From an uncultured Deferribacteres bacterium (GTDB lineage Bacteria > Zhuqueibacterota > Zhuqueibacteria > Zhuqueibacterales > Geothermadaptataceae), in assembly GCA_964014485.1 (NCBI GenBank), contig CAXHAT010000101.1:1-27273 (forward strand): 27,273 nt of DNA, given 5' to 3'. The notes below the pieces were generated by a model. That model worked only from the letters and a program-made list of their open reading frames with translations, was not told where the DNA came from and ran no database searches. The number at the start of each line of letters is the position of its first letter. Position 1 is the first letter of the stretch. Shown in pieces: positions 1 to 24,377 of the stretch. The translations under genes were made by a program, and so were the position numbers.

Positions 1-1983
1 AATGACATTTTCAGAAGAATCTTCACTGAAGATGATCTCCAGAATCGATCTGCCCAAAACCGGACGCAGAATTTCATCACAACGCTCCAGCGTCTGACGA
101 AAACGCGGATGCGTGTCGTAGAGCGTTTTGCCCATGCCGGCATACTGCGCGCCTTGCCCGGTAAACAAAAAGGCGATTTTGCCGCGCGCTTGGGCTTTGC
201 CTGAAATCACCTCCGGCATGTTCTCATTTTCTAGAAAAGCATCCAATTTTTCCAAAGCGTCTTCGCGCGATTGTGCAACGACCGCCGCGCGATTTGCAAA
301 CCGAGCGCGACCGGAGTTGGCGCTAAAGCAAAAATCACCAAACTCACTTCTAACACTTTCTTCTTCACGGAGAAATCCTTGTAGCTCCTGAGCTTGTGCC
401 TCCAGGCCTTTCTCATCTGGCGCGGAAAAGGTGAAAAAGTTATGCGTGCGCTCCGATTCTGTTTTTTGGATCGATACAGCAGGAGATTCTTCTAGAATAA
501 TATGCGCGTTTGTGCCGCTAAAACCAAAACCGCTGACGGCGCCGCGACGATTTTTCTCGCCGGTGAGCCACGGCGTTCGCTCGGTCGGCACGGTGATCGG
601 GACATCTTCCCAGGGAATGCGCGAGCTTGGTTTTTTAAAATGAATGTGCGGCGGAATCTCTCGATTTTGCAGCGCAAGCACGACTTTGATCAGCCCGGCT
701 ATTCCAGAAGCCGATTCCATGTGTCCGAGATTGGTTTTGGCTGAACCGATCTTGAGCGGATTTTCGCGGTCATGACCTTTACCGTAAACTTGCGCCATAG
801 CTTCCACTTCAATCGGATCGCCGAGGGAAGTGCCCGTGCCGTGCGCCTCGACAAAATCGACGTCTCCGGGTTCGAGTTTCGCATTTTCGAGCGCCTGACG
901 AATCACTTCAGCTTGCGCCAAACCGTTCGGCACGGTCAAGCCGCTGCTCGCCCCGTCCTGGTTGACCGCCGACCCGCGAATGAGCGCCAGAATGCGGTCG
1001 CCGTCTTTTTGCGCGTCGCTCAGACGTTTGAGCACAATCACGCCACAGCCTTCGCTGCGCACAAAACCGTCCGCCGCGTCATCGAAAGTTTTGCAACGCC
1101 CGTCCTTCGACATCATGCCCCATTTTGAAAAACCGATGTAAGTTTCCGGCACGACAATGACATTCACGCCGCCGACCAGCGCCATGTTGCAATCGCCGGA
1201 TTTGAGGTTTTGCACCGCTAAATGCGTCGCGGTGAGCGAAGACGAGCACGCCGTATCGACCGCCATAGCCAGGCCGTTCAAGCCGAGCAAGTAGGCTACG
1301 CGCCCCGGTGCGGCATTGAGCACGTTGCCGGAAGCCAGATACGCGTCGATGTTTTCCAGCGGCGCGTATTTCATGTGCATTTGCCAGTACTCGGTCGTCG
1401 TGATTCCCGCGAATACGCCGGTGAGGCTGTCTTTCAAACTGTCCGGTGCGATGGCGGCATTTTCCAGCGCTTCCCAGCACACTTCAAGAAAGAGCCGGTG
1501 CTGCGGATCCATGCTCGTGACTTCGCGCGGCGTCAGGCCGAAAAATTTGGCGTCGAATTGATCAACTTGATCGAGAAATCCGCCCCAGCGCGTGTAGGTT
1601 TTGCCCGGCGTTTCGCGGTTGGCGTCGAAATAATCGTCGATGTTCCAGCGCGATTTCGGCACTTCGGTGATCGCGTCCACGCCGTTTTGCAGCAAGCGCC
1701 AATAATCATCCGGATTTTTCACCCCGCCGGGAAATCGACAGCCAATGCCGACAATCGCGATCGGCTCATTTTGATTTTTCTCCAGCGACGCGACTTTTGT
1801 TTCGAAGCGGTTGATTTTGGCGAGCGCCTGTTTCAGGACGGCTTTGCGATCCAGTTGCCGCGGAATGCTGTCTGCGGCGGTTTGGTTTGGCTTGGGGGGG
1901 CGAGACTCTTGTATCCGGCGCTTCTCGGACCGCGCGCTTCCATCCGGCGAAAGTTTTGCCGAACGCTTCGATAAATCGTGCAT
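1..1983 (-). CDS. Type I modular PKS 'PKS4', 3'-truncated by window edge: N-terminal docking region, KS, KS-AT linker, start of AT
   Basis: Read manually; absent from ORF track because no stop lies in the window. ATG at 1983, open frame to position 1: [13 protein letters not shown]...[16 protein letters not shown]...[10 protein letters not shown]...VDTACSSSL...[14 protein letters not shown]...[12 protein letters not shown]...[17 protein letters not shown]...[19 protein letters not shown] Cys-His-His triad intact. Confidence 0.95.
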
Positions 1984-2030
1984 CTCGTGCTCTTGTTGTC
2001 AAATCCAGGGTGTTTATCTAGCGAGCGCTA
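1918..2030. repeat. Diverged direct repeat copy A (PKS4 first ~22 codons plus leader); partner at 9789-9902
   Basis: Manual alignment: core 1963-2013 vs 9834-9884 is 48/51 identical; start codons 1983 and 9854 are in register. Confidence 0.9.
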
Positions 2031-2677: not shown

Positions 2678-2718
2678 GCTTTGTTCTTTTGTTTCTCTCA
2701 ATAGACACGTTTATCTTC

Positions 2719-2754
2719 ATAATGCTATTTAGCATTATTTTTGAAATCAAGCAA
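2719..2754 (-). promoter_or_regulatory. Putative sigma70-type promoter with overlapping palindromic operator upstream of the vapBC-like pair
   Basis: Minus strand TTGATT (2750-2745)-N17-TAGCAT (2727-2722). Perfect inverted repeat ATAATGCTA-tt-TAGCATTAT at 2719-2738 covers the spacer and -10. Confidence 0.55.
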
Positions 2755-2798
2755 GCTTTTGCTGCAAAACAAAGAATCACAGAAAGCGAATTGTCTAC

Positions 2799-5700
2799 TC
2801 AATTCATCAACTTCTCCGCCAACATCGCCGTCAACTCATCTTCCGTAAAATCATCATCTTCAAACGCTTCAGGTTCTTCTCCCTCGCCTGAAACGGCCAT
2901 CAACTCCGGGATTTCTTCCTGCACAAACTGCATCAATTTCTCGACCGTCGGATAATTGAAGGTCAGCGTCGTCGGCATTTTGCGGCCAAAACCGATTTCA
3001 AGGCGACGGCGCAGTTCAACCGAGGTAAGCGAATCCATGCCGAGGTCGAAAAAGCCTTTGTTGAATTCGATCACGCTCGGATCGTCGAGTCCAAGCACGG
3101 TCGCGATTTGCGTTTGCAAGTATGTGGTCAATTTCTCTTCGCGCTCATGATCCGGCGTCGCCGCGATTTCCTGAACGACGTCGCGGATTTCCTGCGCCGT
3201 TTCTTTTAAACCAGCCTCCTCAATCTGAATTTCTTCAAAAAACGGCTGCGGTCGGATCGCTTCGTAGGCCGATTTTAACTTGCGCCAATCAATTGCCGAG
3301 ACGACCGTGTTCGGCGCATTTTCCGCGATCAACCTCTGCATCGCTTCCAACGCCAAATCGGAGTTCATCGGCAAAAGTCCGTGTTCGGCCACAGCTTCCT
3401 TCTGCGCGTCGCTGAATCCGCGCATCACCTCCCACGTGCCCCAATTGATGCCGATCATCGGCGATTCGGGATCAATCTCGTGCGTCCAGCGCGCAAAAGC
3501 GTCGAGAAACTGATTCGCGGCGGCGTAATGCGCGTAGCCGTTCGCGCCGAGCAGCGCGGTCGTTGATGAAAAGCAGATGAAGAAGTCGATCCCCTGCTTG
3601 GCCGCATCAAAGGACGAAGCTTTTCTATCCATGTCATTCCCGTCACTCTCCGCCACGTCATTCCCGCGCAGGCGGGAATCTATAACTTGCGCGCCGTCAC
3701 TGGATTCCCGCCTGCGCGGGAATGACGTGAGAGGCCGGTCTTCAGCAGTGCTGTTTTGCAAACAATTCCAGAGTGTGATCGTCCCCGCCGCCTTCGCTTC
3801 CAACATCGCGTCCAAATCTTCCGGCGACATTTCAGCAAGCGGTTTCGCCGAAGTCAGCGCCGCTGCGTGGATCACGCCTTTCAGCGGCGGCAGCGAATTG
3901 CCGAATGCCAAGAACTTTTTCTGCATTTGCACTTCGTCGACAACATTGAGCTGCCAAACATGAATTTCGACGCCTTGATTCTCCAGATTTTTGATCGTCT
4001 GGACCGCTTCGAATTTCGGATGATCTTGAGGGAGATTTTCCCATGAATCACGATCCGGCAAACCGCTCCGCCCTGTCAAAACCAGATGCTTCGCGCCTTC
4101 GTCGACCAGCCATTTTGAAATTTCCAAACCAAGTCCGCCCAAGCCGCCGGTTATCAAATAAGCGCTGTTTTCATCAATTTCCAGATTCGCGGCATTTGGC
4201 GCATCCTGACGTTCTAATCGCGGAACAAATCGACCGTCTTTTTGCAAAACAATCTGATCTTCCTCCGAATTTTGTTCGATCACGCTCAGAATTTCCCCCG
4301 CCGCTTTTTCGCGCGAAAGATGAGACTCGACGTCGATCACGCCGCCCCAGAGATCGGGATGTTCCAAAGCCGCGCCGCGCGCGAACCCCCAGAGCGTCGC
4401 GCCGAAGGGTTCCGTGCGCGATTCCGCTACATCGCTGATCTGCGCGTTTTGCGTCAAAGTCCAGATTTTAGGCGAAAATGATCGATTTTCGTTCAGCGCC
4501 TGGAGCATGTTCAAAATCGGATGTAAAATGCGTTTTTGTTGATCGGCCAAATCACTTGCGGAGCAATTTTCAGGCAGAGCCGAATCCATGCCCCAGCCGT
4601 AAACAATTTGGGGCGAATGAAAATCGCCGCAATGCTCAAAAACCTGCTGCAAATCGGATTTTGAGTTTGGCGAAATCGTAAATTGATGTTTTGAATCATG
4701 CCCAAAGTCATCGCCGGATTCAATGATCACGCACCGATCTTTTCGTCGCTGCAATGCTTCAACAAATTTTTGAGAATAGCCCTTTTTGTCGGCAAAAATG
4801 ATCCAGTCGCGGGTCGAGTGCGCGTTTTCGCGGTTTCTCGAAACGAGGATGGACTGTTTGTACAAACGCCGGGAACCATCTGCGGGCAAAACGTCGGTTT
4901 CTTCAAATCCGACCTCCGCGAGAACATTTTGCCACGCTTGCGCGGAAATCAACGGATGATTCGGTCGCAATTCGTGATCGGAAAAAGCCCACCAGCCGGA
5001 AAGCAGGCCAAAAACCATGTCGATCCAACGCTGTTTTTCCGTTCCTTCGAGCATCAGAAAAAGTCCGCCGGGCGCAAGCAGTTTTTGAATTTGCGCCAGC
5101 GACCGCTTCAAATTCGTCGTCGCGTGGACAACGTTGGCGGCGATAACGATATCGAAATCAGCGGCGGAAAAACTTTGCGCGAAAAAGTCTTTTTCCAAAT
5201 CTAGCAGCGCGTATTCGACGAAATCGTAATTTGCGAACTTTTCTTTCGCGCGTTCCAGAAAGAACGGCGACACATCTGTAAAAACGTATTCCGTCAGTTG
5301 CGGCGGCAGTTCCGGCAGAAGAAAGGTCGCTGTCCCGCCAGTGCCCGCGCCGATTTCCAGGATGCGCAGTGTTCGGTCGCCGGTCTGTTTTTCAAAAACC
5401 GCCGCCAGCGCTTCCCGCATCATCACATTCGCCGTTTTGCTGAAAGCCGAATCGCTGTAAAGCTTTTCCGCCGCGTCCGAACCGCCCTGTGGAAAAACGA
5501 CTTGCACCGGATCGATCTCGCCCTTGAGCACTTCCGCCAGATGCGGTCCGCATTGTTTGACCAAATTTAATTCGATCTCACACGTCGGATGTTTTTGCAG
5601 GAATTCGGCAATCTCTCGCGTCGAGTCAGGCACGGTCGGCATCTTCAAAACGCGAATCTCATCGCCGATCAACTCGACGATCTTTTCTTCGGCCAGCATA

Positions 5701-8700
5701 TCCAGAAAGCGCGCGAACAACTGCCGCTGCTGCTCGACGACGCCCGACTGCTCGACCAGCGTTTTCAATTTGAAATTTCGCCTTGCTTCGAGCACAACGT
5801 CGAGGTTTTGAAATGCTTGCAGAACGTAAGACAAAGTCAATTTTTCCAAATCCGGCGCGGCGGCGATGAACGCGGCCATTCCGTTTTCGGCGCTCAGCCT
5901 TTCAGCCAAAACATCGAGGTTCGCGGCGATCTCTCCCGGCACCATCGAAACGCCGCGCGTTTTTTTATCGCTCCGTTCATTGGTCGATTCCAATTTCCGC
6001 CAGGCAACGCGATAGAACCAATCATTCAGTTGCCGTTCCCGAGCGGCGGCGAAAAGCGAGCGCGGCGCCCGGCGCATCTCAAAACCGTCGAGTTCCGCAA
6101 CGAGAGACTCGTCCGCGTTAAAAATCTTCACCCGTCCGCGCAAGATATTTGGCTCGTCCGCGACCGGCTCGATTTCGCACACGCTCCACAGTGAATTTTG
6201 CGGCGCGGCGAAAAATTCGAGCCGCTCCAAACCCGTCATCAGAAAAATATCATCGCTCCCGGCGACCGCTCCGGCCAGCGGCACAAGCGGCTGCAAACAA
6301 GCGTCGAGCAGCGCCGGATGAAAACCGAATTTCGCGGCGACCTCGTCGTCATTCGCGGCAAAATTGATTTTTGCCAGCACCGCCTTCTTGCCTAAATGAA
6401 TTTTTTGAACGCCCTGAAATGACGCCCCAAAGCTCAGACCGCGCGTAAGCAAATCGTCGTAATGTTCTTTCCCAGAGATTTCTTCAGAACATGCCGTTCG
6501 AAGGTTTTCCAGGTCGAGCACGAGCAATTTGCCGTTTCGTGAAGCTGCGTTTTGCCGTCTGAAAACGCCCTGCGCGTGCCGCGTCCAGTTCGCGTCGTCT
6601 TCTTGTGATTGGCTGAACGCCTGGAATTTAAAAACGCCGTCGTCGATCTCGGTGAGCGTTAGTTGCACCAGGGTTTCCTCTTCTTCGCTGAGAAAAAGCG
6701 CCTCTTCGATTTTGATTTTCTCGAAAACGATTGACGCATTTTCAAACAAGTCCCGGCTCGCAGCCGCGACCATTTCCAGCCACGCTGCTCCCGGCATGAC
6801 CACGCGGTCGGCGATTCGATGATCTTGCAAAAAACGCCCAACATCGAGCGAAAATGAAATTTCATAAACCGGATTCGGCGTATTTAAGCGATTGCCCAGC
6901 AGCGGATGTCCGAGTCGGTTCGGCGCGCCCTGCGAGACGCTGCGCTTTTTGCCGGAAGAAAGCCAGTAGCGTTTGTGCTGCCAGGCATAGTGCGGCAATT
7001 TCACAAATTCATCACTCGGCGGCAGGACATTTTCCCATTTTGGATCGAAGCCGATTTGATAGAACCTGCCGAGATTCTTGAGCATCGACGTGCGTTCGTC
7101 CTCGTCGCGCAAAGTTGTCGGCAGCGTTGTGCCGACGCGGTTTTTCTGTTCCAAAACCTGCGCAATCGAGGTGAGCAGCGTCGGGTGCGGGCTGACTTCG
7201 ATGAATGTTCGCAGTCCCTCCTGTTCTATCACGCGCTCGATGGTGTTGGCAAAAAGCACCGGTCGGCGGAGATTGCGCCGCCAATATTCTTCATCAAAAA
7301 CTTCGCTGGTCGCCAACTCGCTCGTCACCGTGGAGTAAATCGTCGTTTGCGGCGTTTTCGCGGAAATGCCGCGTAAGGAATCGCGCAATTCCAGACTGTA
7401 CGGCTCGATGCGCGGGCTGTGATAAGCAAACTGCATCGGCAGCATGCGGAAGTGAATATTCTCCTGTTCGCAGCGTTTTTCCAGCGCTTCCATCGCCGCC
7501 GTCTCGCCGGAAATCACCACGGTGTGCGGGCTGTTGATCGTCGCGATCCACGCCTGGTCGGGATAATCGGCGAGCATGTCCTGCATTTTTTCCTGCGGCA
7601 GGCCGACCTGGGCCATGCGGCCCTCGCCCATGACGGTTTGCATAATTCGCCCGCGATGGAAAATCACCCGCGCCGCGTCTTCCAGCGAAAGCGCACCCGC
7701 CAAATGCGCCGCCGCCACTTCGCCAAAACTGTGTCCGACCAAGACCTCCGGCTCCACGCCCCAGTTTTGCCAGATTTTCGCCAGCCCGACCTGCATTGCG
7801 AAAAGCGCCGGTTGCGTAATTTCGGTGTCGTGAATGCGCGACTTGTCTTTTTCAGCAAAAAGTTGATCGATCAACGACCAATCCGCGTGCTTGCGCAATT
7901 CCGCGTCGCACGCTTCAATGGTTTCGCGAAACAACGGCTCTTTTTCGAACAGCGACCGCCCCATGCCGATCCACTGCGGCCCCTGCCCGCAAAAAACGAA
8001 AACGATTCCGCTCTCGCCTTCTTCAAATTTTTGACCGCGCTCCAGTGCAAACTCAGGATCGCCGTCCAAAAATCTTGAAATCTGTTCCCGAAGCGCAGTG
8101 TGCGAATCTCCGGCGACCGCGATGCGATGCTCATGATGACTCCGCCGCAGCGCCGTCGTTCGGCAAATCGCTTCCAGGGGAACGTTCTGTTTTTCACCCA
8201 AAAAATCAGCATAATTTTTCACCATCCCCTCCAGCGCCGCCTTCGAATGCGCGGAGATCGGCAAAACCACGCCCTGCGTCAAAAACGCAGCAGTATTCCC
8301 CCTTTGAAGGGGGTTAGGGGGATGTAAACGCCCGTCCCCGTTTCCTGAGACGTTATCGTTTTCATCTGAACTATTTTGAGCGCCTACCTTGCCTTGAGAC
8401 GACTCCGAACATCCCCCCTGCCCCCCTTCAAAGGGGGAATTGGCGGCGCTTCGCGCCTTATGAAATTCTCCCAAAACCACATGTCCGTTCGTCCCGCCGA
8501 AGCCGAACGAACTCACTCCGGCAAAACGCTCCCCGGAATTCATCCACGCGCCGCCTTCAGGTTGAATCGTCAACCGCGTTCCGTCCAAAGAAATGTGCGG
8601 ATTGAGTTTGGTAAAATGCAGATGCGGCGGAATGAATTTGTTTTGCAAACAAAGCACGGCTTTGATCACCCCGGCAATGCCCGCCGCGCCTTCGAGATGG

Positions 8701-9854
8701 CCAATATTGGTTTTGACCGACCCGAGAACGCAATTTTCAGCATCCGCCGTCTGTTGTCCGACGGTCTCAGCCAGCGCTTCGACTTCAATCGGATCGCCGA
8801 GCGAAGTGCCGGTGCCGTGCGTTTCGATATAACTGATTTTTTCGGGCGAAAGATTGGCGTTTTTGAGCGCGCGCCGTACAACGTCAACTTGTGAAATGCT
8901 GTTCGGCGCGGTCAGGCCGTTGGTTTTGCCGTCCTGATTTACCGCCGTGCCGTGAATGAGCGCAAGAATCGGATCGTTGTCGCGTTGCGCGTCCGTGAGA
9001 CGTTTGAGCACGATCACGCCGCAGCCTTCGCCGCGCACAAAGCCGTCCGCGCGATGATCGAACGCCTTGCAGCGCCCGTCCTTCGCGAACATGTTCATTT
9101 TCGACAGACTGATCGTCCCTTCCGGCGTGACGAACAGATTCGCGCCGCCCGCCAAACTCATGTCCGCTTCGCGATTGCGCAAGCTCTGACAGGCGAGATG
9201 AACCGCGATCAACGAAGACGAGCACGCGGTGTCCATCGTGACGCTAGGGCCGCGCAAATCGAAAATGTAGGAAAGTCGATTGGAGAGAATGCTCCCCGCT
9301 GTTCCAGTTGAAGAATAGGTGCCGATTTCATGCAAATTTTCCATTTGCATGAAAACGTATCCGCTGCTCATGTTGTGCGCGCCGAAAAACACGCCGGTTT
9401 GGCTGCCGCGCAAGCCCGTCAGTGTCTGCCCGGCGTCTTCCAACGCTTCCCAGGAAACTTCGAGCATGAGGCGCTGCTGTGGATCCATCTGCTCAGCCTC
9501 GCGCGGCGAAATGCCGAAAAATTGCGGATCGAATTGATCGACGTCGTCGAGAAATCCCCCGTAGCGTGATGTCAGTTTGCCCGGCGCGTCGATGTTTTCG
9601 TCGTAGAACGCATCGTTATCCCAGCGCGTTTTCGGCGTTTCGCTAATCGCGTCGACGCCGTTTTTCAGCAATTGCCAGAACGCTTCCGGGCTATTCGCGC
9701 CGCCGGGAAAGCGGCACCCCATGCCGATGACGGCGACGGGTTCATTTTTGGCGGATTTGGGTTGGGATTCCTGAGATTTTTGTTTCAAGCGCTTCTCAAG
9801 GAGCGCCCTTTTTTCCGGCGAAAGGCTCGCCAGACGCTTCGATAAATCTTGCAT
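2799..9854 (-). CDS. Type I modular PKS 'PKS3': KS-AT-DH-C-methyltransferase-KR-ACP
   Basis: KS DTACSSS / ETHGTGT / NIGHLEG; AT GQGPQW, GHSFG, FAYHS; DH HRIADRVVMP and HPALLDACLQ; cMT ILEIGAGTGG and ANVVHAT; KR TGGLGGLG and YAAAN; ACP GMDSLTSVEL. No ER motif seen. Confidence 0.96.
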   Translation of the reverse strand: MQDLSKRLASLSPEKRALLEKRLKQKSQESQPKSAKNEPVAVIGMGCRFPGGANSPEAFWQLLKNGVDAISETPKTRWDNDAFYDENIDAPGKLTSRYGGFLDDVDQFDPQFFGISPREAEQMDPQQRLMLEVSWEALEDAGQTLTGLRGSQTGVFFGAHNMSSGYVFMQMENLHEIGTYSSTGTAGSILSNRLSYIFDLRGPSVTMDTACSSSLIAVHLACQSLRNREADMSLAGGANLFVTPEGTISLSKMNMFAKDGRCKAFDHRADGFVRGEGCGVIVLKRLTDAQRDNDPILALIHGTAVNQDGKTNGLTAPNSISQVDVVRRALKNANLSPEKISYIETHGTGTSLGDPIEVEALAETVGQQTADAENCVLGSVKTNIGHLEGAAGIAGVIKAVLCLQNKFIPPHLHFTKLNPHISLDGTRLTIQPEGGAWMNSGERFAGVSSFGFGGTNGHVVLGEFHKARSAANSPFEGGQGGCSESSQGKVGAQNSSDENDNVSGNGDGRLHPPNPLQRGNTAAFLTQGVVLPISAHSKAALEGMVKNYADFLGEKQNVPLEAICRTTALRRSHHEHRIAVAGDSHTALREQISRFLDGDPEFALERGQKFEEGESGIVFVFCGQGPQWIGMGRSLFEKEPLFRETIEACDAELRKHADWSLIDQLFAEKDKSRIHDTEITQPALFAMQVGLAKIWQNWGVEPEVLVGHSFGEVAAAHLAGALSLEDAARVIFHRGRIMQTVMGEGRMAQVGLPQEKMQDMLADYPDQAWIATINSPHTVVISGETAAMEALEKRCEQENIHFRMLPMQFAYHSPRIEPYSLELRDSLRGISAKTPQTTIYSTVTSELATSEVFDEEYWRRNLRRPVLFANTIERVIEQEGLRTFIEVSPHPTLLTSIAQVLEQKNRVGTTLPTTLRDEDERTSMLKNLGRFYQIGFDPKWENVLPPSDEFVKLPHYAWQHKRYWLSSGKKRSVSQGAPNRLGHPLLGNRLNTPNPVYEISFSLDVGRFLQDHRIADRVVMPGAAWLEMVAAASRDLFENASIVFEKIKIEEALFLSEEEETLVQLTLTEIDDGVFKFQAFSQSQEDDANWTRHAQGVFRRQNAASRNGKLLVLDLENLRTACSEEISGKEHYDDLLTRGLSFGASFQGVQKIHLGKKAVLAKINFAANDDEVAAKFGFHPALLDACLQPLVPLAGAVAGSDDIFLMTGLERLEFFAAPQNSLWSVCEIEPVADEPNILRGRVKIFNADESLVAELDGFEMRRAPRSLFAAARERQLNDWFYRVAWRKLESTNERSDKKTRGVSMVPGEIAANLDVLAERLSAENGMAAFIAAAPDLEKLTLSYVLQAFQNLDVVLEARRNFKLKTLVEQSGVVEQQRQLFARFLDMLAEEKIVELIGDEIRVLKMPTVPDSTREIAEFLQKHPTCEIELNLVKQCGPHLAEVLKGEIDPVQVVFPQGGSDAAEKLYSDSAFSKTANVMMREALAAVFEKQTGDRTLRILEIGAGTGGTATFLLPELPPQLTEYVFTDVSPFFLERAKEKFANYDFVEYALLDLEKDFFAQSFSAADFDIVIAANVVHATTNLKRSLAQIQKLLAPGGLFLMLEGTEKQRWIDMVFGLLSGWWAFSDHELRPNHPLISAQAWQNVLAEVGFEETDVLPADGSRRLYKQSILVSRNRENAHSTRDWIIFADKKGYSQKFVEALQRRKDRCVIIESGDDFGHDSKHQFTISPNSKSDLQQVFEHCGDFHSPQIVYGWGMDSALPENCSASDLADQQKRILHPILNMLQALNENRSFSPKIWTLTQNAQISDVAESRTEPFGATLWGFARGAALEHPDLWGGVIDVESHLSREKAAGEILSVIEQNSEEDQIVLQKDGRFVPRLERQDAPNAANLEIDENSAYLITGGLGGLGLEISKWLVDEGAKHLVLTGRSGLPDRDSWENLPQDHPKFEAVQTIKNLENQGVEIHVWQLNVVDEVQMQKKFLAFGNSLPPLKGVIHAAALTSAKPLAEMSPEDLDAMLEAKAAGTITLWNCLQNSTAEDRPLTSFPRRRESSDGAQVIDSRLRGNDVAESDGNDMDRKASSFDAAKQGIDFFICFSSTTALLGANGYAHYAAANQFLDAFARWTHEIDPESPMIGINWGTWEVMRGFSDAQKEAVAEHGLLPMNSDLALEAMQRLIAENAPNTVVSAIDWRKLKSAYEAIRPQPFFEEIQIEEAGLKETAQEIRDVVQEIAATPDHEREEKLTTYLQTQIATVLGLDDPSVIEFNKGFFDLGMDSLTSVELRRRLEIGFGRKMPTTLTFNYPTVEKLMQFVQEEIPELMAVSGEGEEPEAFEDDDFTEDELTAMLAEKLMN
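3654..3729. repeat. REP-like palindromic element, family A (GTCATTCCCGCGCAGGCGGGAATC), in frame inside the PKS3 KR domain
   Basis: Perfect 27-bp inverted repeat 3654-3680 / 3703-3729 with 22-nt spacer; each arm is itself a hairpin (ATTCCC-N8-GGGAAT). Translates as TSFPRRRESSDGAQVIDSRLRGNDV. Partial third copy GTCATTCCCG at about 3633-3642. Confidence 0.93.
8295..8440. repeat. REP-like palindromic element, family B (CCCCCTTTGAAGGGGG), in frame inside the PKS3 KS-AT linker
   Basis: Arms ATTCCCCCTTTGAAGGGGGTTAGGGGGATGT (8295-8325) and ACATCCCCCCTGCCCCCCTTCAAAGGGGGAAT (8409-8440) are near-perfect inverted repeats with an 83-nt spacer. Translates as NSPFEGGQGGC...LHPPNPLQRGN. Confidence 0.9.
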
Positions 9855-9902
9855 CTCGTGCTCTTGCTGTCAATTCCAGGGTGTAAATTCTAACGAACGT
9901 TA
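9789..9902. repeat. Diverged direct repeat copy B (PKS3 first ~22 codons plus leader); partner at 1918-2030
   Basis: acgcttcgataaatc(t/g)tgcatctcgtgctcttg(c/t)tgtcaa(t/a)tccagggtgt is shared between the two copies. Confidence 0.9.
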
Positions 9903-9959
9903 TAAGTTTTAATCCGCAAATGAAGGCGTTCCGCTTCTCAAAACAAATTCTTTGAACTT

Positions 9960-9992
9960 CTGCTATTTAGTATTACTTTGAGACTCAAGCAA
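9960..9992 (-). promoter_or_regulatory. Putative promoter block upstream of PKS3, homologous to 2723-2754
   Basis: 9961-9992 vs 2723-2754: 26/32 identical without gaps. Minus strand TTGAGT-N17-TAGCAG; small palindrome TTGAG-A-CTCAA at 9978-9988. May also serve the divergent TA pair. Confidence 0.45.
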
Positions 9993-10041
9993 ACCCTCAA
10001 TGAAGTACATTGATTCAGTTCATCAACTACAAGGCGAAATG

Positions 10042-10260
10042 ATGACGCAACTTTTAACCCAAGCCTTTGAAAAAGCGAGCGCATTGCCTGAGCAAGAACA
10101 AAACGAATTCGCCAAATGGATTCTCGCCGAACTCGCTTCCGAATGGCGCTGGGCAAAAGCCTTTGCTGACTCACAAGGTCAGCTTGCGCAATTGGCAGAC
10201 GAAGCGCTGGCCGAGCATCGCGCCGATAAAACGCTCACTCTCGATCCAGAAAGGCTGTGA
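10042..10260 (+). CDS. Putative antitoxin (small acidic/helical protein) upstream of a RelE/ParE-like toxin
   Basis: MTQLLTQAFEKASALPEQEQNEFAKWILAEL...LADEALAEHRADKTLTLDPERL. AAGG at 10031-10034 favours ATG 10042 (or 10039) over 10000. GTGA overlap with the toxin start. Confidence 0.75.
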   Translation: MTQLLTQAFEKASALPEQEQNEFAKWILAELASEWRWAKAFADSQGQLAQLADEALAEHRADKTLTLDPERL

Positions 10261-10526
10261 AATCCCATACGACCGCACGTTTTCGAAAAATACTTCAACA
10301 CTTGCCGAAACAGATTCGAGAACAAGCGCGAACCGCTTACCAACGTTTTACTCAAAATCCCTTTCATCCAAGCCTGCACTTCAAACAAATCCATTCAACA
10401 AAACCCGTCTATTCAGTTCGCATCAACATCGATTATCGCGCCGTCGGCATTCTCGACAGTAATGAAATCGTCTGGTTCTGGGTTGGCGGTCACACTGAAT
10501 ACGAAAATTTGATTGCACGACTTTGA
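10257..10526 (+). CDS. RelE/ParE-superfamily toxin (type II TA)
   Basis: 89 aa, basic; TTARFRKILQHLP...NPFHPSLHFKQI...YSVRINIDYRAVG...IVWFWVGGHTEYE matches the RelE/ParE-fold pattern. Translationally coupled to the upstream small ORF. Confidence 0.82.
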   Translation: MKSHTTARFRKILQHLPKQIREQARTAYQRFTQNPFHPSLHFKQIHSTKPVYSVRINIDYRAVGILDSNEIVWFWVGGHTEYENLIARL

Positions 10527-10545
10527 TCATTTACCGAACATCTTC

Positions 10546-17349
<6,804 letters not shown>

Positions 17350-17392
17350 TTAGTACCTCATTTCGCAATTGCAGTGACGTGTCGACAACCGC

Positions 17393-17580
17393 TTGTTTAA
17401 CTCCTTCGGAGTAGAAATGAACAAAAAAACACTCCAATCCCAGGGCGTTGCCCTGGGCTATGCCATGAAACACCTTCGGCGTAGGAAAATACCGCAAAGC
17501 GGTTTGACAACTCAGCTCAGGGCAGCGCCCTGGGTTAAAAAGCTCGAGATACCCTCTCTTACTCCGAAGGAGTTAAACAA
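17393..17580. repeat. 188-bp symmetric composite palindrome (REP/REPIN-like, family C) between PKS1 and PKS2
   Basis: Perfect 21-bp terminal inverted repeat TTGTTTAACTCCTTCGGAGTA (17393-17413 / 17560-17580), 25-nt spacers on both sides, 45-nt inner arms containing CCCAGGGCGTTGCCCTGGG and CTCAGGGCAGCGCCCTGGG hairpins (17439-17483 / 17490-17534), 6-nt centre. Confidence 0.9.
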
Positions 17581-17609
17581 AATATTTTTGATCTATCGGA
17601 TTGAAACAC

Positions 17610-20600
17610 TCAGTAATTCCCTTCAAAGGCCTGTAATTTCTCAGCCAGCAAAGCTTCCGCATCTTCGTCGGAGAGCTGCTCCAACTCGGCGATTTTTGCA
17701 TCTTCGTCCGCGGATTTTGCGGTTTGCTCCGGCTCGTCTTTGCCGTTGGAGAGCGCTTCAGCAAAAGTTTCTTCGGCGAGAAAATTTGTGATCGCGTCGA
17801 TGGTCGGATAGTCAAACACCAGCGAGCCTGGCAGCGATTCGCCCAAATCAGAAGCCAGGGCGTTGCCTAATTCGACGGCCATGAGTGAGTCAAGTCCTTG
17901 TTCCTTCAAAGGTTTGCCCGCGGGCGGCTGTGCGGAAACGGCGAGTCCGAGAATGTGAATCACCTGTTGGCGGACTGCGTCTTTTAGAAAATTCCGGCGT
18001 TTTTCCGGCGGCGTTTGCAATAGCTCTTCACCAAAATTTCTTGACGCCTGATTGTTTTTAGGCGCCGATGTTGGGTCTGTTTTCGGACGAAGTTCGTGGA
18101 AAAACGGCCATGAATTTGGCGTTGCATTATTACTAAAAAACGATTTCCAATTCGCAGGTAAAACGGCGATTTGTGCCGCATCTTCCGTCAGACATTTTTC
18201 AAACAGATCAAGACCGCTCTCCGGAGAAATCATGCTGATTCCCAGTTCGCCCCAGCGTTGTTGATCGCGGTTTTCCATGGCGGCGGCCATGCCGATCTCG
18301 CTCCACGGCCCCCAATTTACGCTCAAGGCTGGCAATCCCAACGCTCGACGATGGTGCGCCAGCCCGTCCATGAAAGCATTGGCGGCGGCGTAATTTCCCT
18401 GACCTTTGGTTCCGAGCAGCGCCGTGACGGACGAGAAAAGCACGAACGCGTCGAGATCGAGATTTTGCGACAATTTGTGTATATTCCAGGCACCCAAAAT
18501 CTTCGGCGCAAAAACGTCATCGAAATTTTGCCACGACTGGCCGCGCAGCAGCCCGTCGCGCAACATGCCGGCGGCATGAACGATTCCCCGAAGCGGCGGC
18601 ATGTTCTCGGCAATTTCGTCAAAAATTCCGGCGGCGTCTTCTAATTTTGAAATATCGCCGCGCAGCACGCTTATCTTTGCGCCGCGTTTTTCCAATTCGT
18701 CGATTTGCCCCCGCGCCGCTTCGGAAGGTTCTCCGCGCGAAGTGAGCGCCAGATGCCTGACGCCGCGTTCAACCAGACGCTTAGCGGTGCGCAATCCGAG
18801 CCCGCCCAAACCGCCGGTGATCAACCACGTTCCGTCGGTTGTAAATTCGTCTTTTTCAGGACGGTGCTTTTGCGTCAACACAATTTTGCCGATATGTTTG
18901 GCCTGCGACATGAAACGAAACGCTTCCGGCGCCGCTTGAATCGCGTACTCTTGCAAAGGCAGCGGCAGCAAAGCTCCTTCGGAAAACATTCCCATCAATT
19001 CCGCGAACAAATCACCGACTAACTCCGGCGCGTCCTTCGCCATGTGATCGAGCGCGATGACGAAGTAGGAAACGCCCGGCTTTTCGGCGGCCATGTGCTT
19101 TTCGCTCCAAATATCAGTCTTGCCGATTTCGATAAAACGTCCGTTTGGCGCAAGCACGGAGACGCTTTTGTCGATGAATTCCCCTGCGAGAGAATTGAGC
19201 ACAATATCAACTCCGGCCCCGTCCGTGACGGCCATGATTTCGTCAGCAAAATCGAGCGTGCGGGAATTGAAAACGTGCCGCACGCCGAGGGATTTCAGCA
19301 AGTCGCGCTTCTTTTCACTCCCGGCAGTTGCAAAAATTTCAGCGCCCGCCTGCTTCGCCAATTGAATCGCCGAAAGCCCGACCCCGCCCGCTCCGGCGTG
19401 GATCAAAACGCGCTCGCCCGGCTGCATTTTCGCCAAACGATTGAGTCCGTAGTGTGCGGTCAAAAAAGTCACAGGAATCGTCGCCGCCTGCGCAAAAGAG
19501 ATCGCGCCGGGCTTTTTCACAACCAGTTCGGCGCGTGTGATCACGTTCGAGCTAAAACTCCCGAACGCCATCGCGACGACTTCATCGCCGACTTGAAATT
19601 GCTCAACATCCTCGCCGACGGCGGAAATTTTCCCGGCGCACTCAAGGCCAAGCGGCCCGGCTTCTCCGGGGTACATGCCGAGGGCGTTCAGCACGTCGCG
19701 GAAATTCAGACCCGTCGCATGAACCTGAATTTCGACCTCGCCGCGTCTTGGGCGCTGCAAAGAAATTGGCTGTAAAGAAAGCTTGTCGAAGGTTTGATCA
19801 GGGGATTTTTGTAGCTGGAAAGGCTGGTTGTCCGGCGGAACAAGAAAATCCTTCGCGCCTTTTTTGATCATGCGCGCGACAAAACGTTCGCCGCTTCTGA
19901 ACGCGATTTGACTTTCTTCGCTTCCGGCAAAAATGTCATCAACAAGCTCAGCAACTTGTTCCGGGTTTTCCGACGCATCCAGATCGAAAATTTTGCATTT
20001 CAGTTCGGGGTGCTCCTGCATGATGACACGGGCCAGCCCCCACAACGACGCTTGCGACAAACCAGCCAACGATTCTTGCAGCGAAACCGCTTGCGCGCCG
20101 TGCGTGACAACGCACAATTTAGGCGCAGCCGCGCTTTCCGACATCAACCGATCCATCGAATGCACGAGATGCAGCAAGCTCTGGTTAAGCAGCTTTTGCC
20201 GCGCCCGTAATTCTTCGCGCGTTCCTTCTTTGGATTCGTCGCCGCGGAAGAAAATCGCGCCCTGAAAGTTTTCTGAAAATTGTGATGCTGCATTCTGAAG
20301 CAGTTCGAAAAAATTGTCCGGTTTTTCAAAATCAACGTGCGTCGCGTTTTCGGGAAGCTCGCCGTTTGAATCCGAGAATAGCCCGATCACGCATTCACCG
20401 CCGTGCGTCGCAATTCTTTGCGAGAGGCTTTCGCTGATTTCGGCGTTTTCTGAGAAAATCACCCAAGCGCCCGGCTGCTGATTTTGTACATTTTTCCTGT
20501 CCAAAGCCCGCTCGCGCCAGACGACTTCATAAAGCCAATTATCAATATTGTTCCGCTGCGTCATTCGCAGAAGCGCAGTGCGGTCTGCTCGTTTTAGTCG

Positions 20601-23600
20601 CAATTTTTCGATTTTCGCGACTTGTCGTTCATTTTCGTCATGGAAAATCAGGTCACCTTTGAACATTTCGCGGTCGTCGTCGGCGTTCTCGTGCAGTTGC
20701 GCGTGACAAGTCAATTTCGAAGAATGGGCGCCATTGCATTCAAATCGTTCGCAGCCAATTGGCAGGTAAATTTCAGCATCAATTTCCGGAACGCAGGCAA
20801 GAAAAACTTGAATTCCAGCATCGAGCAGCGCCGGGTGCATGGTGAAATCCTCCGCCTGGTTTACGGCGGATTCCGCAAGCGGCAAAAGCGCGACGGCCTC
20901 GTTTTTTCCGAGAAAAATCTTTTCAATGGCCTGAAAATTTTCACCGATGAACGCCCCGACTTTGAGCCTGCGGGCATAGAAATCACCGCCTGAGATTTCT
21001 TGATCACAGCGCGTTCGGGTTTCCGAAAACGCGTCTCGCTCATTCTGCGATTCTTCAATCTCCCCTGTTGAAGAAGCGAGTTTCGCCGTCAGGAAAAGCG
21101 CCCATTCGGCGGCTTCATCGTCGGAGTCTGGTGCGCCGAAAATTTCAACCGAATAACTGCCGTCGTTTTCCGGCGTGATGATGGTTTGTAGTGCTTGGGG
21201 TGAATCTTCGGAAAGCGGCAAGGCTTCGCGAATAAGGAAATCGCTGCATACAAAAGCTTCGTCGCCGAAAACGCGACGTCCGGCTGCCTGCATCATTTCC
21301 AAATATCCGGCGGCGGGGAAAACCGCCATATCGAGGAACCGATGGTCGTTTAAAAAGCCTGGAGATTTTGCGCTGATCCGCGATTCGAACTGCACGCTCT
21401 TCAGCGCTGATCGTAAACGGCTTCCCAAAAGCGGATGACCGTCTTTTTGCACGCGAGTCTTTGATCCAGCGTGAGCGGCGACGGGATTGCTCTCATCGAT
21501 CCAATAGCGCTCGCGTTGGAACGGGTAGGTCGGCAGTTTGATGCGCTTACGCGAGTATAGTTTATCGAAACCGCGCCAATCGATGGCAGCGCCGTTGACA
21601 TAGAGCGCGCCGAGGCTGTTGAGCAATTGTCCCCAGTCGTTTTTGCCTTTGCGCAGCGAGGCCAACCACTGTTTACCGCCTGGTTCAACGCACTTCATCG
21701 CCATGCTCACGAGTGACGGCGCGGGACCCATTTCGAGGAAGATCGTGCATCCTTCATCAGCCAAAGTTTTCACGCCGTCCGAGAAATTCACGGCGGCGCG
21801 AATGTGTTTGCGCCAATACTTTGCATCGGGAATTTCGTCGGGAGCAAAAACGCGACCGGTCAAATTCGAAACCAGCGGGACTTTCGGCGACGAGAACGAA
21901 ATTTCGTTTGCAATACGTTCGAATTCATCCAGCATCCCCTCCATCAACGGCGAATGAAAAGCATTGGACACCGTTAGCTTTTTGACTTTGATTTTTTCTT
22001 CTTCAAATTTCTCAACAATGGTCTGAAGCGCTTCGGAAGCACCGGAAATGACTGTGTTTTCCGGCCCGTTAAGCGCAGCAATCGAGACTTTGTCCGCAAA
22101 TGGCGCAACGGCTTCGGCGACTTTTTCTCTGTTCGCAAAAACCACCGCCATTCCGCCTTTTTCATCGAGGTTCTGCATCAATCGCGCGCGCGCGGCGATG
22201 AGCTTGAGACCATCTTCCAGACTAAAAACGCCCGCCCGACAAGCCGCGACATACTCGCCCACACTATGACCGAGCACCATGTCCGGCTCCACGCCCCAGG
22301 ATTGCCAGAGTTCGGCAAGGGCGAATTCCAGCGCAAATAATGCAGGTTGGGTGTAGGCGGTTTGATTGATCGCATTTTCCGTAGTACGATTCTCGTCATT
22401 TTCCAATTTGTCATTCCCGCGCAGGCGGGAATCTAAAGGGCGCTGCTCTTTCTGGATTCCTCCCGACTTATTCGGGACGGGAATGACTTCTTCGTGAGTA
22501 TCTAAAGCAAAAATCACGTTCAAAAGCGGTGATTCAAGCTCACCCTCCAGGAATTCCGCACAGCGATCCAGCGCTTCCCGAAACACCGGCTGCGTCTCAT
22601 AGAGCTGTTTTCCCATACCGGCGTACTGTGCGCCTTGCCCTGTGAAAAGAAAGGCGATCTTCGGATTTACGCTCTCTTCGATTTGCCCGGTTTGCAGATT
22701 TGGCGTTCTTTCGCCGTTAATGAATCGTCGCAATTGCGCGGACATTTCTTGCGAATCAGGAGCGTGAGCGCTCAGGCGAAACTCAAAATCTGCCCTGCCG
22801 CTGTTGGCGGAGAAACAAATGTCCGGGAACAATTCGGGAGTTTGTTTCTCGATAAATTCCGCGTAGCGCGCCGCCTGGGCTTTCAGGGCTTGCTCACTGG
22901 CGGCGGAGAGTTTGAGCGTGTGTTCCGCACGACCCGAACTTTCCTTTGAAGACGAATTGAAGACTTGTTTTTTCAGTTCAGCTTCAGAAGCGGTCTTGTC
23001 ACTTCTGTCCGCAGGCAAAATCGATTCTTCCTGAATGACATTTTGAGGGGGCGGGGATTCTTCGAGCACAATGTGCGCGTTTGTTCCGGTGATGCCGAAG
23101 GAATTTACTCCCGCAAACAGCGATTCGTCCGTCTTGGGCCAGGATTCAAGCTTTTGCTGCATTTGAAAGCCCAAACCCCGCCAATCGATTTTCGGATTCG
23201 GACGGTCAAAATGCAAACTGGGAGGAATTTGGCGATGCTGCAAACAGAGCACGGCTTTGATCAGTCCGGCAATTCCAGAAGCGGCTTCGGTATGACCAAT
23301 ATTCGTTTTGACCGACCCGATGCGACATGGCTGGTCTTGAGAACGATTTTCGCCCAAAACCGCACCAAGTGCGCCAAGCTCAACCGGATCACCCGCCGCC
23401 GTGCCGGTGCCGTGCGCTTCAATGTAGCCGACTTTTGCAGGTTCGACGCCCGCTTCTGCGTAGGCGCGCCGCAGCATGGCGATTTGCGTTTCAACGCCGG
23501 GCGCGACGAGCAATCCGCTGCTGGCGCCGTCGTTGTTGACCGCGCTGCCGCGAATAACAGCGTAGATTTCGTCGCCGTCCGCCAGAGCTTGATGAAGTTT

Positions 23601-24377
23601 TTTGAGCAATATCATGCCCGCTCCCTCGCTGCGCACGTAACCTTGTGCGTTTTCCGCGCCGAAGCGGCAGCGGCCATAGGGCGAGAGAATTTTTGATCTG
23701 GAGTAACCGATTGAGATGAAGGGATGCAAGATGAGATTGACGCCTCCGGCCAGCGCCAAATCACTTTCGCCGTCGCGGATGCTCTTGCAGGCAAGATGTA
23801 CGGCAACCAGCGATGAAGAACACGCCGTGTCAACGGTCATGCTCGGCCCCTGCAAATTGAACGTGAATGAGAGCCGTCCTGATGCGGAATGCCGCCCGCC
23901 GCCGTTGGTGAAATAAAGATCAAATTTGTCCGTCGCACGGATCATGCGGTCTTCGTAATCATTCGTCCACATGCCGACGAAAACGCCCGCCCGACGGCTG
24001 GCAAGATTTTGCGGCGCAACGCCCGCGTCTTCAAAAGCTTCCCAAGCGGTTTCCAGCAAGAGCCGTTGCTGGGGATCGAGCACTTCGGCTTCTCGTGGAG
24101 AAATGCCAAAAAAAGCAGGGTCGAATTGGTCGATATTTTTTAAAAAACCGCCCTGCCGAGTGACGATTTTACCGGGCTTTTGCGGTTCGGGATCGTAGAG
24201 CGCACGCAACTCCCGGCGTTCCTCAGGAACGTCAGCGACCATATCCTTGCCTTCACAAAGCACCCGCCAAAACTCCGAGGGCGAGTCCGCGCCGGGAAAA
24301 CGGCAGCCCATTCCGATGACGGCAATAGGCTCATTTTGAAACGTATCAGGCGGATTCAGTTTCTTTTCTCTCGTCAC
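17610..24377 (-). CDS. Type I modular PKS 'PKS1': KS-AT(malonyl-type)-DH-ER-KR-ACP
   Basis: GTG start with upstream AGGA. KS DTACSSS / EAHGTGT / NIGHTEA; AT QTAYTQPALF, GHSVG, NAFHS; DH HRFLDMAVFP and HPALLDAGIQ; ER GLNFRDV and LIHAGAGGVG; KR TGGLGGLG, HAAGMLRD, YAAAN; ACP GLDSLMAVEL. Confidence 0.96.
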   Translation of the reverse strand: MTREKKLNPPDTFQNEPIAVIGMGCRFPGADSPSEFWRVLCEGKDMVADVPEERRELRALYDPEPQKPGKIVTRQGGFLKNIDQFDPAFFGISPREAEVLDPQQRLLLETAWEAFEDAGVAPQNLASRRAGVFVGMWTNDYEDRMIRATDKFDLYFTNGGGRHSASGRLSFTFNLQGPSMTVDTACSSSLVAVHLACKSIRDGESDLALAGGVNLILHPFISIGYSRSKILSPYGRCRFGAENAQGYVRSEGAGMILLKKLHQALADGDEIYAVIRGSAVNNDGASSGLLVAPGVETQIAMLRRAYAEAGVEPAKVGYIEAHGTGTAAGDPVELGALGAVLGENRSQDQPCRIGSVKTNIGHTEAASGIAGLIKAVLCLQHRQIPPSLHFDRPNPKIDWRGLGFQMQQKLESWPKTDESLFAGVNSFGITGTNAHIVLEESPPPQNVIQEESILPADRSDKTASEAELKKQVFNSSSKESSGRAEHTLKLSAASEQALKAQAARYAEFIEKQTPELFPDICFSANSGRADFEFRLSAHAPDSQEMSAQLRRFINGERTPNLQTGQIEESVNPKIAFLFTGQGAQYAGMGKQLYETQPVFREALDRCAEFLEGELESPLLNVIFALDTHEEVIPVPNKSGGIQKEQRPLDSRLRGNDKLENDENRTTENAINQTAYTQPALFALEFALAELWQSWGVEPDMVLGHSVGEYVAACRAGVFSLEDGLKLIAARARLMQNLDEKGGMAVVFANREKVAEAVAPFADKVSIAALNGPENTVISGASEALQTIVEKFEEEKIKVKKLTVSNAFHSPLMEGMLDEFERIANEISFSSPKVPLVSNLTGRVFAPDEIPDAKYWRKHIRAAVNFSDGVKTLADEGCTIFLEMGPAPSLVSMAMKCVEPGGKQWLASLRKGKNDWGQLLNSLGALYVNGAAIDWRGFDKLYSRKRIKLPTYPFQRERYWIDESNPVAAHAGSKTRVQKDGHPLLGSRLRSALKSVQFESRISAKSPGFLNDHRFLDMAVFPAAGYLEMMQAAGRRVFGDEAFVCSDFLIREALPLSEDSPQALQTIITPENDGSYSVEIFGAPDSDDEAAEWALFLTAKLASSTGEIEESQNERDAFSETRTRCDQEISGGDFYARRLKVGAFIGENFQAIEKIFLGKNEAVALLPLAESAVNQAEDFTMHPALLDAGIQVFLACVPEIDAEIYLPIGCERFECNGAHSSKLTCHAQLHENADDDREMFKGDLIFHDENERQVAKIEKLRLKRADRTALLRMTQRNNIDNWLYEVVWRERALDRKNVQNQQPGAWVIFSENAEISESLSQRIATHGGECVIGLFSDSNGELPENATHVDFEKPDNFFELLQNAASQFSENFQGAIFFRGDESKEGTREELRARQKLLNQSLLHLVHSMDRLMSESAAAPKLCVVTHGAQAVSLQESLAGLSQASLWGLARVIMQEHPELKCKIFDLDASENPEQVAELVDDIFAGSEESQIAFRSGERFVARMIKKGAKDFLVPPDNQPFQLQKSPDQTFDKLSLQPISLQRPRRGEVEIQVHATGLNFRDVLNALGMYPGEAGPLGLECAGKISAVGEDVEQFQVGDEVVAMAFGSFSSNVITRAELVVKKPGAISFAQAATIPVTFLTAHYGLNRLAKMQPGERVLIHAGAGGVGLSAIQLAKQAGAEIFATAGSEKKRDLLKSLGVRHVFNSRTLDFADEIMAVTDGAGVDIVLNSLAGEFIDKSVSVLAPNGRFIEIGKTDIWSEKHMAAEKPGVSYFVIALDHMAKDAPELVGDLFAELMGMFSEGALLPLPLQEYAIQAAPEAFRFMSQAKHIGKIVLTQKHRPEKDEFTTDGTWLITGGLGGLGLRTAKRLVERGVRHLALTSRGEPSEAARGQIDELEKRGAKISVLRGDISKLEDAAGIFDEIAENMPPLRGIVHAAGMLRDGLLRGQSWQNFDDVFAPKILGAWNIHKLSQNLDLDAFVLFSSVTALLGTKGQGNYAAANAFMDGLAHHRRALGLPALSVNWGPWSEIGMAAAMENRDQQRWGELGISMISPESGLDLFEKCLTEDAAQIAVLPANWKSFFSNNATPNSWPFFHELRPKTDPTSAPKNNQASRNFGEELLQTPPEKRRNFLKDAVRQQVIHILGLAVSAQPPAGKPLKEQGLDSLMAVELGNALASDLGESLPGSLVFDYPTIDAITNFLAEETFAEALSNGKDEPEQTAKSADEDAKIAELEQLSDEDAEALLAEKLQAFEGNY
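22410..22487. repeat. REP-like palindromic element, family A variant, in frame inside the PKS1 AT domain
   Basis: One arm is the exact GTCATTCCCGCGCAGGCGGGAATC (22410-22433). The other is GATTCC-TCCCGACTTATTCGGGA-CGGGAATGAC (22455-22487) with a different inner hairpin. Translates as VIPVPNKSGGIQKEQRPLDSRLRGND. Confidence 0.9.

Follow-up and report, generated by a model that had tools for sequence, protein, structure and literature searches.

How do three different catalytic domains of neighboring polyketide synthases (PKSs) come to carry the same palindromic DNA, and all in frame? The question is raised by a 27,273-nt stretch of DNA (called the window below; contig CAXHAT010000101.1 of GenBank assembly GCA_964014485.1, positions 1 to 27,273) from an uncultured Deferribacteres bacterium, for which an earlier note, made from the sequence alone, had reported such an element in a KR, a DH and an AT domain. 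We followed the element through the source genome (8.40 Mb in 465 contigs, 97% complete, 0.83% contamination; C-numbers below are its contigs). The reading we favor, with a probability of about 0.78, is that a known hairpin repeat (NTS/CGTC-1) has proliferated to about 260 loci in the genome of this uncultured bacterium of marine origin, and that its copies in PKS and nonribosomal peptide synthetase (NRPS) genes would persist only where they preserve the reading frame, contain no stop codon and fall in a surface loop or an inter-domain linker.

Three in-frame copies in the window

The 24-mer GTCATTCCCGCGCAGGCGGGAATC has five exact matches in the window (3657-3680, plus strand; 3703-3726, minus; 14053-14076, plus; 14099-14122, minus; and 22410-22433, plus), as compared to a mean of 0.00 in 100 shuffles. 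Copies 1 and 2 are convergent pairs of 70 nt each (24 + 22 + 24 nt), and copy 3 (78 nt) has a variant second arm with a nested hairpin (GGATTCC-TCCCGACTTATTCGGGA-CGGGAATGAC). Exact matches, open reading frames (ORFs) and Pfam assignments agree with the earlier note that all three copies are in frame within open PKS ORFs, which lie on the minus strand. Copy 1 (3657..3726; a head-to-head NTS/CGTC-1 dimer with a 22-nt spacer, read as SFPRRRESSDGAQVIDSRLRGND) is in the KR domain of a 2351-aa KS-AT-DH-cMT-KR-ACP module (2799..9854). Copy 2 (14053..14122, a 70-nt dimer, read as SFPRRRESSSVDALKDSRLRGND) is between PKS_DH_N and PS-DH, in the DH loop that joins the two hot-dog halves, in a 2267-aa KS-AT-DH-ER-KR-ACP module (10546..17349). 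Copy 3 (22410..22487, the 78-nt variant dimer, read as VIPVPNKSGGIQKEQRPLDSRLRGND) is in a loop of the AT domain of a 2255-aa module (17610..24377) that is also KS-AT-DH-ER-KR-ACP. Of the two recurring peptides described earlier, SFPRRRES and DSRLRGND, copies 1 and 2 contain both (SFPRRRES..DSRLRGND), and copy 3 contains DSRLRGND but not SFPRRRES (it reads VIPVPNKSGGIQ..DSRLRGND). Folded as single-stranded DNA (ssDNA), copies 1 and 2 give 24-bp stems (-32.3 kcal/mol, z -8.76, and -33.3 kcal/mol, z -10.6, respectively), and copy 3 gives -19.2 kcal/mol (z -4.57).

A fourth copy is probably cut off by the contig end. The N-terminal part of a fourth PKS (KS and the start of AT; 1..1983, minus strand) ends with ..SSENVI at the contig edge, which is the position of the other AT inserts, and AATGAC at 1..6 would be the last 6 nt of an element at that AT position.

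A known family of hairpin repeats

Each arm has an 8-bp stem (ATTCCCGC/GCGGGAAT), a 4-nt loop (GCAG) and a CGTC head, and the arms pair head to head. Three arms of the window fit the NTS motif CGTCATTCCCGCGMAVGCGGGAATCYRG, and a genome search with one mismatch allowed (as in PMC11893778) found 69 exact matches and 173 at up to 1 mismatch (reversed control: 0). The first outward flanking base is G (the C of CGTC) in 67% of PKS flanks and 46% of non-genic flanks. Judged by sequence, the window pairs are head-to-head dimers of a known repeat, namely the NTS subset of dRS3, also called CGTC-1 REP, RPE-6 and, in N. meningitidis, 'REPIN'.

The passages of Di Nocera et al. (2013, PMC3733652) used here equate CGTC-1 REPs with Neisseria dRS3 and R. 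conorii RPE-6; both comparisons made in the earlier note, with dRS3 and with Rickettsia palindromic elements, were right. They describe CGTC-1 units with 8-bp stems and 4-nt loops, mostly as head-to-head dimers, and intragenic dimers that are in frame and encode 20–30 residues; the supplement gives DSRLRGND in R. conorii RC1303 and GSRLRGND in C. burnetii CBU_1766. In the parts consulted of a preprint on REPINs (10.1101/2021.07.10.451892), the 21-mer ATTCCCGCGCAGGCGGGAATC is the commonest REP of N. meningitidis 2594 (241 copies) and is assigned to a Group 2 RAYT. The sections used of Chenal et al. (2025, PMC11893778) report that the NTS motif is cut as ssDNA by SsnA, a small GIY-YIG protein encoded by an NTS-flanked gene, and that NTS/SsnA modulates transformation in N. 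meningitidis.

The exact 24-mer occurs in at least 121 loci of other species (one genome per species scanned), and the hosts among the matches listed include Neisseria lactamica, N. mucosa, Azospirillum, Duganella, Cupriavidus, Sphingomonas, Micavibrio and metagenome-assembled genomes (MAGs) labeled as many other phyla. We note that a frame is open across the whole 324-nt locus in 30 of the 121 listed loci, and many such frames in GC-rich genomes are probably open by chance. In five (L012, L019, L029, L033 and L125) the 24-mer lies in frames that, judged by eye, resemble real genes; their hosts are Saccharibacteria, Nanoarchaeota, Patescibacteria, Sphingomonadales and other MAGs.

The element thus resembles several described systems, each with differences. 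As in the NTS/Ssn system, the arm fits the NTS motif and a small single-domain GIY-YIG gene is flanked by the repeat; however, the host here is an uncultured marine bacterium and not a symbiont (as in the parts of that paper used), and its copies are mainly dimers with 22-23-nt spacing, 21 loci being in frame in PKS/NRPS genes. With the CGTC-1 REPs, as far as described in the passages used, it shares stem, loop, CGTC head, dimers and the DSRLRGND peptide, whereas their intragenic hosts are mostly replication and repair genes and the 78-nt nested-hairpin variant is absent from those passages. With REPIN-RAYT systems, as presented in the parts of the literature used, it shares an inverted REP doublet with a short spacer that forms one long hairpin, and the identical 21-mer, but REPINs are described as extragenic and no RAYT of the source genome is flanked by the studied REP.

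Two further comparisons rest on general background. Classical miniature inverted-repeat transposable elements (MITEs) have terminal inverted repeats (TIRs) and a target-site duplication and are moved by DDE transposases; our element is likewise small, non-coding, multi-copy and has inverted ends, but no direct repeats flank the listed copies (the element ends are not defined without an empty site). Ogata et al. reportedly found Rickettsia palindromic elements (RPEs) in frame within intact genes, where they are read as additional stretches at the protein surface, and the likeness is again a palindromic repeat in frame in an otherwise intact gene. RPE-1 is longer and unrelated in sequence, and RPE hosts are many housekeeping genes of a reduced genome, whereas the excess seen here is in one class of giant secondary-metabolite genes.

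Genome-wide copies and their concentration in PKS/NRPS genes

The source genome contains 320 arms at up to 2 mismatches (control: 0) and 379 at up to 3 mismatches, of which 172 are exact. They form 118 convergent pairs vs 1 divergent pair, and in most pairs the spacer measures 23 nt (74 pairs) or 22 nt (24). Many spacers have CAG/TAx ends and a central GYGC in common, so the spacers, described earlier as unrelated, are not entirely so. Merging arms that are at most 150 bp apart gives 260 loci. Copy numbers in 30 relatives are 0–6, except for 42 in one of them (G018); this tally includes two unpublished genomes (G016 and G023), on which no conclusion rests.

Most pairs avoid long ORFs: the median frame spanning a pair is 94.5 aa, as compared to 437.5 aa for 2000 random intervals. 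The 19 PKS/NRPS ORFs make up 91,851 bp (1.09% of the genome), 15 of them carry at least one arm, and they hold 21 of the 260 loci, all 21 in open frames. The other 241 ORFs of at least 1000 aa (954,672 bp) contain 3 element loci, which gives densities of 229 vs 3.1 loci per Mb (about 73-fold). ORFs of 300–999 aa have 11 internal element loci, and another 20 loci fall within the first 70 aa of an open frame, where they probably precede the true start codon.

The non-PKS hosts checked by Pfam are a GT4 glycosyltransferase, a MobA-like transferase, an SSF transporter, a C-methyltransferase, a C25 peptidase, a NACHT/FGE-sulfatase protein, HypF, an ABC transporter and a TIR protein, with the element between domains or splitting one. 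Orthologs of the SSF transporter are found in 26 of the 30 relatives; three same-family orthologs (65% identity) have a loop of 16 residues where the source genome has 59. As a separate observation, in a same-order relative (G011; L210, contig C42) the ortholog of this transporter (C50 in the source genome) carries about 60 inserted residues in this loop too, but of a different sequence.

Some dimers are accompanied by a partial arm. A half-arm (GTCATTCCCG, plus strand) is at 3633..3642, 24 nt outside the copy 1 dimer, and leaves a coding-strand echo (..GNDVAESDGND). Genome-wide, 4 of the 379 arms have a partial arm at this -24 offset. The partial arm (GTCATTCCCG; GGGAATGAC on the other strand) was seen 24 nt beyond the dimer at 3633-3656 of the window, C114:3431, C114:4769, C114:20241 and C326:1018, and in several PKS copies it yields a second ..GND or ..END about 8 codons past DSRLRGND.

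Length, frame and protein context

The length of the core (both arms and spacer) differs between genic and non-genic pairs. Of 29 pairs within ORFs of at least 300 aa, 16 have a core of 70 nt, and where there is no long ORF, 64 of 79 pairs have one of 71 nt. Cores of 67, 70, 73 and 79 nt, which become multiples of 3 once the C and G of both CGTC heads are added, account for 20/29 genic vs 9/79 non-genic pairs; this bias is consistent with a frame filter that treats the core plus 2 nt as its unit. Copies of 69 nt (four), 71 nt (one) and 72 nt (one) in Pfam-supported ORFs are exceptions. Two frames of the outer arm are free of stop codons, DSRLRGND and IPACAGMT, and 29 of 30 ORF-internal cases use the former (20 of 20 in PKS/NRPS); for the inner arm all three frames are in use. 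Arms inside ORFs have 0.52 mismatches per arm vs 1.13 for the other arms, and their mismatches fall 9, 5 and 15 times on first, second and third codon positions, respectively.

In the proteins, the inserts appear as additional segments. Alignment with paralogs and with PDB 5KTK delimits a full extra KR segment of 52 residues (156 nt; 3597..3752, minus strand) that contains the copy 1 dimer. It is missing from all nine paralogous KR domains of the genome, and on PksJ (5ktk_A) query residues 8-144 and 197-248 align with the contiguous chain residues 220-360 and 361-411. An AlphaFold2 model of the KR (10-sequence alignment; mean pLDDT 78.6, pTM 0.76) has a confident Rossmann fold, with residues 156-197 at pLDDT < 50 between helix 122-143 and strand 202-208 (FICFSS). 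For the other two domains the earlier note gave extra lengths of about 34 aa (DH) and 39 aa (AT). All 21 aligned DH homologs (25–33% identity) show a 34-residue gap opposite the insert, with 48 query residues opposite 11 chain residues of the CurF DH (3KG6), and in the AT domain 39 query residues are opposite 4 of CurL (4MZ0). As with the Rickettsia elements, the insert is absent from related proteins (KR paralogs, DH homologs and SSF orthologs), the PKS comparison being one of homologs and not of true orthologs. A search of 5.8 billion database proteins with the KR insert region (residues 2036-2080, proteins of 1293-4115 aa) returned only the query at E ≤ 1 among 8 candidates; the search is word-based and says little on rarity. 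If translated, the repeats would add 23–26 residues within disordered loops of 35–52 residues.

Sites of the PKS/NRPS copies

The copies in PKS/NRPS genes are spread over at least 12 sites that are not homologous, in loops or linkers. These include the AT loop, the DH linker (with two element types), the catalytic domain of KR, three sites in or before the psiKR region, the linker before the KR Rossmann motif (after ER or psiKR), and three sites in a hybrid PKS-NRPS on C3, one of which is in an adenylation domain just before YTSGSTGKPKG. The five 78-nt copies of the genome are 85–96% identical to each other and their flanks 27–79%; the variant at the AT site of the window and that at a DH site (C114:16306) are 94% identical within flanks of 31–35% identity. 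Together with the non-homology of the sites, this makes the three copies in the window independent of one another. The earlier note had proposed independent insertions, and for the three window sites this stands; the AT copy is less clearly an independent event, since eight AT domains hold an element at the identical position, 8-9 residues past a conserved (I/V)(I/V)F, of either the 78-nt or the 69-nt type. Copies at the AT site could result from repeated insertion, from inheritance with gene conversion, or from both.

A candidate mobilizing enzyme

The earlier note had suggested a mobilizing gene, such as a transposase, flanked by the repeats. Among the transposases nothing of the kind was found: none of the seven Y1_Tnp (IS200-like) matches in the source genome has an arm within 3 kb. 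The gene flanked by the repeat instead encodes a small Ssn-like GIY-YIG protein (C343:204-422, minus strand; 95 aa from Met, PF01541 E 2.1e-16), one of seven GIY-YIG matches in the genome. An exact NTS is 54 nt past its stop codon, after which the contig ends; upstream is a compound arm (GTCATTCCCGCG-TGCGC-CTGCGCGGGAATGAC). No NCBIfam model matches the protein above cut-off. Its homologs in Azospirillum (sp. RU38E) and a Micavibrio MAG are 53–59% identical, and at one of the six loci of these homologs an NTS lies 15 nt downstream. N. lactamica NS19 has a single small GIY-YIG gene, which lacks NTS flanks and gives no BLASTP match to the C343 protein. Going by gene architecture, an association of the Ssn type is present in this genome and one of the RAYT type was not found; the mechanism of spread would be a step beyond either. 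We suggest that the copies may have arrived by a transposition-like spread as single-stranded hairpins, with the Ssn-like nuclease on C343 as the putative cognate enzyme.

Three more small GIY-YIG genes were observed (C229:3650-3868, C86:29817-30044 and C156:9870-10094). The repeat that flanks the C229 paralog is an ATACC-variant containing a nested hairpin, and the C86 and C156 genes are flanked by short TGTCATTC..GAATC hairpins, so the genome may contain several nuclease-hairpin pairs.

The repeat is itself a target of other elements. Two MITE-like families, of 149 bp (TIR CAGGCTGTTGCAGAATAG, CTGC duplication) and about 268 bp, insert specifically into the loop of the repeat arm; examples are C37:24420-24568, C25:11920-12068 and C30:2820-3088, and dozens of ends were seen, many of them at contig ends. 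Targeting of REPs/dRS3 by insertion sequences has been reported (PMC3733652, in the passages used).

Alternative explanations

Could the inserts be artefacts of metagenome assembly or binning, i.e. repeats misjoined into PKS contigs? The fragmentation of the assembly, the 79 of 260 loci that are within 150 bp of a contig end, and the adapter sequence at several contig ends speak for caution, but a chimeric join would rarely keep frames of 2255-2351 aa open, and here all 21 PKS/NRPS loci are in open frames. Contigs (DNA) assembled from two further runs of this marine-metagenome study also cross both junctions of copy 2 with 0 differences (run X3 covers 13919-14110 on the left, and X2 covers 14075-14230 on the right), and no contig of those runs joined across an empty site; parts of the window without such cover are uninformative. 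We regard an artefact as hardly credible. A more serious alternative, though still an unlikely one, is that most PKS copies go back to a few old insertions that were spread by module duplication and concerted evolution, with no ongoing colonization. The shared position in eight AT domains is what it predicts, as are five copies just ahead of the KR Rossmann motif, and the AT domain C114b has an unrecognizable insert of about 25 aa at the same AT position, as expected of a decayed old copy. It fits less well with the variety of sites (at least 12, non-homologous), with the presence of both the 78-nt and the 69-nt type at the AT site, with a 78-nt variant in a DH domain too, or with elements that are 85–96% identical within coding DNA of 27–79% identity.

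Different agents and different roles can also be considered. Mobilization of REPINs by a RAYT (an IS200/IS605-type tyrosine transposase) in place of a GIY-YIG nuclease would suit the structure of two inverted REPs around a short spacer in one long hairpin, and the REPINs with the identical 21-mer have been assigned to a Group 2 RAYT (10.1101/2021.07.10.451892, in the parts consulted). RAYT-like genes are indeed present in the source genome (C64:29086-29784, C76:24815-25471, C27:34957-35505, found by tblastn, and C241:9806-10369), but each is flanked by its own, other palindromic family; in N. lactamica NS19 the repeat is within 1.5 kb of none of three Y1_Tnp loci, and Di Nocera et al. (PMC3733652) concluded that CGTC REPs lack a dedicated transposase. 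Because the assembly is fragmented, a RAYT next to the repeat might lie in an assembly gap, and on balance we think a RAYT improbable. The elements might otherwise be kept for a role at the DNA level, where, by analogy with NTS/SsnA and its effect on transformation in N. meningitidis, they would be Ssn-cleavable hairpins that steer recombination or uptake, and with it the shuffling of domains or modules, or a restriction of incoming cluster DNA such as has been reported for NTS in Neisseria. The high density in PKS/NRPS genes, the closeness of ORF-internal arms to the consensus and the many copies at domain borders (ER-KR, psiKR-KR, AmT-C and post-AT) would suit such a role. However, other copies are inside KR, AT and A domains, where a crossover would not swap a whole domain, and the same family is found in unrelated genes (transporter, glycosyltransferase, peptidase). 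Only five DNA blocks (at least 250 bp, at least 75% identity) are shared between PKS paralogs and two of them end at an element, but these two simply stop at the start of the variable loop, and none of the five shows a recent exchange bounded by elements. The idea of portable recombination points, put forward in the earlier note, thus found no support there, and we give a DNA-level role little credence. We are similarly doubtful of a stronger version, in which the dimers are more than passengers: they would be preferentially directed to megasynthase genes, or preferentially kept there, in one reading frame, serve as Ssn-dependent break or recombination sites that reshape modules, and mark at least 12 places (AT, DH, KR, psiKR, A and linkers) that tolerate 23–52 extra residues.

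We return to the reading that we favor, a spreading repeat filtered by tolerance, under which the inserts would be passengers and not adaptations. Several points weigh against it. A tolerance filter alone is not obviously enough to produce a 73-fold density together with the 29/30 preference for DSRLRGND. The extra protein segments (about 35–52 aa) exceed the repeat core (23–26 aa), and this excess is unexplained; translation of the inserts is read from open frames alone. The identical position in eight AT domains fits inheritance or gene conversion equally well. On the side of the enzyme, the Ssn link depends on one gene at a contig end, and five of the six homolog loci of its protein have no flanking repeat by the patterns used. 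Finally, orthologous empty alleles of the PKS sites, which the earlier note had hoped for, did not turn up: a DH query in 28 same-order genomes gave one match (28% identity), and a search of 5.8 billion proteins gave 754 matches, the best of them 33% identical, and no PKS ortholog. Without an empty allele, the ends of the inserted unit, a target duplication and the act of insertion are not demonstrated.

What is new and why it may matter

As for novelty, which the earlier note had claimed for the colonization of PKS domains, the repeat family and its in-frame residence in genes are already known, and only the PKS preference is new. In the literature searched we found nothing on six element-encoded peptides and no report of in-frame palindromic repeats in PKSs (the latter partly judged by titles and the openings of abstracts), and supplement 3 of PMC3733652 has no row with 'polyketide', 'ketoacyl' or 'peptide synthetase'. 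Two points stand out, that 21 of 260 loci are in the 1.1% of the DNA that is PKS/NRPS, and that a single reading frame is used almost exclusively; it is the megasynthase excess and the frame bias that deserve to be followed. Should the preference prove real and general, it has a bearing on the way in which a very widespread repeat chooses its targets or survives in them, and the copies would give PKS engineers a natural map of loops (in AT, DH, KR and adenylation domains) that tolerate long insertions. In the source genome, four RAYT-REP pairs can also be set cleanly against several GIY-YIG-hairpin pairs, a contrast that may help in finding the enzyme partner of dRS3/NTS.

Neighboring genes and other observations

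Further genes of the PKS cluster in the window encode a type II thioesterase (24474-25253) and a 3-hydroxyacyl-CoA dehydrogenase (25521-27089), and a search of 28 other genomes of the same order gave no counterpart of the cluster. An Rfam scan of the window at gathering thresholds gave 0 matches. GC content falls to 43% across positions 2001-3000. A Nextera-type adapter (ctgtctcttatacacatct ccgagcccacgagac) is found at the contig end (27231-27264), and adapter-derived letters terminate further contigs of the genome (C343, C326, C36 and C51). The genome also encodes PSCyt1/PSCyt2/PSD1 proteins.

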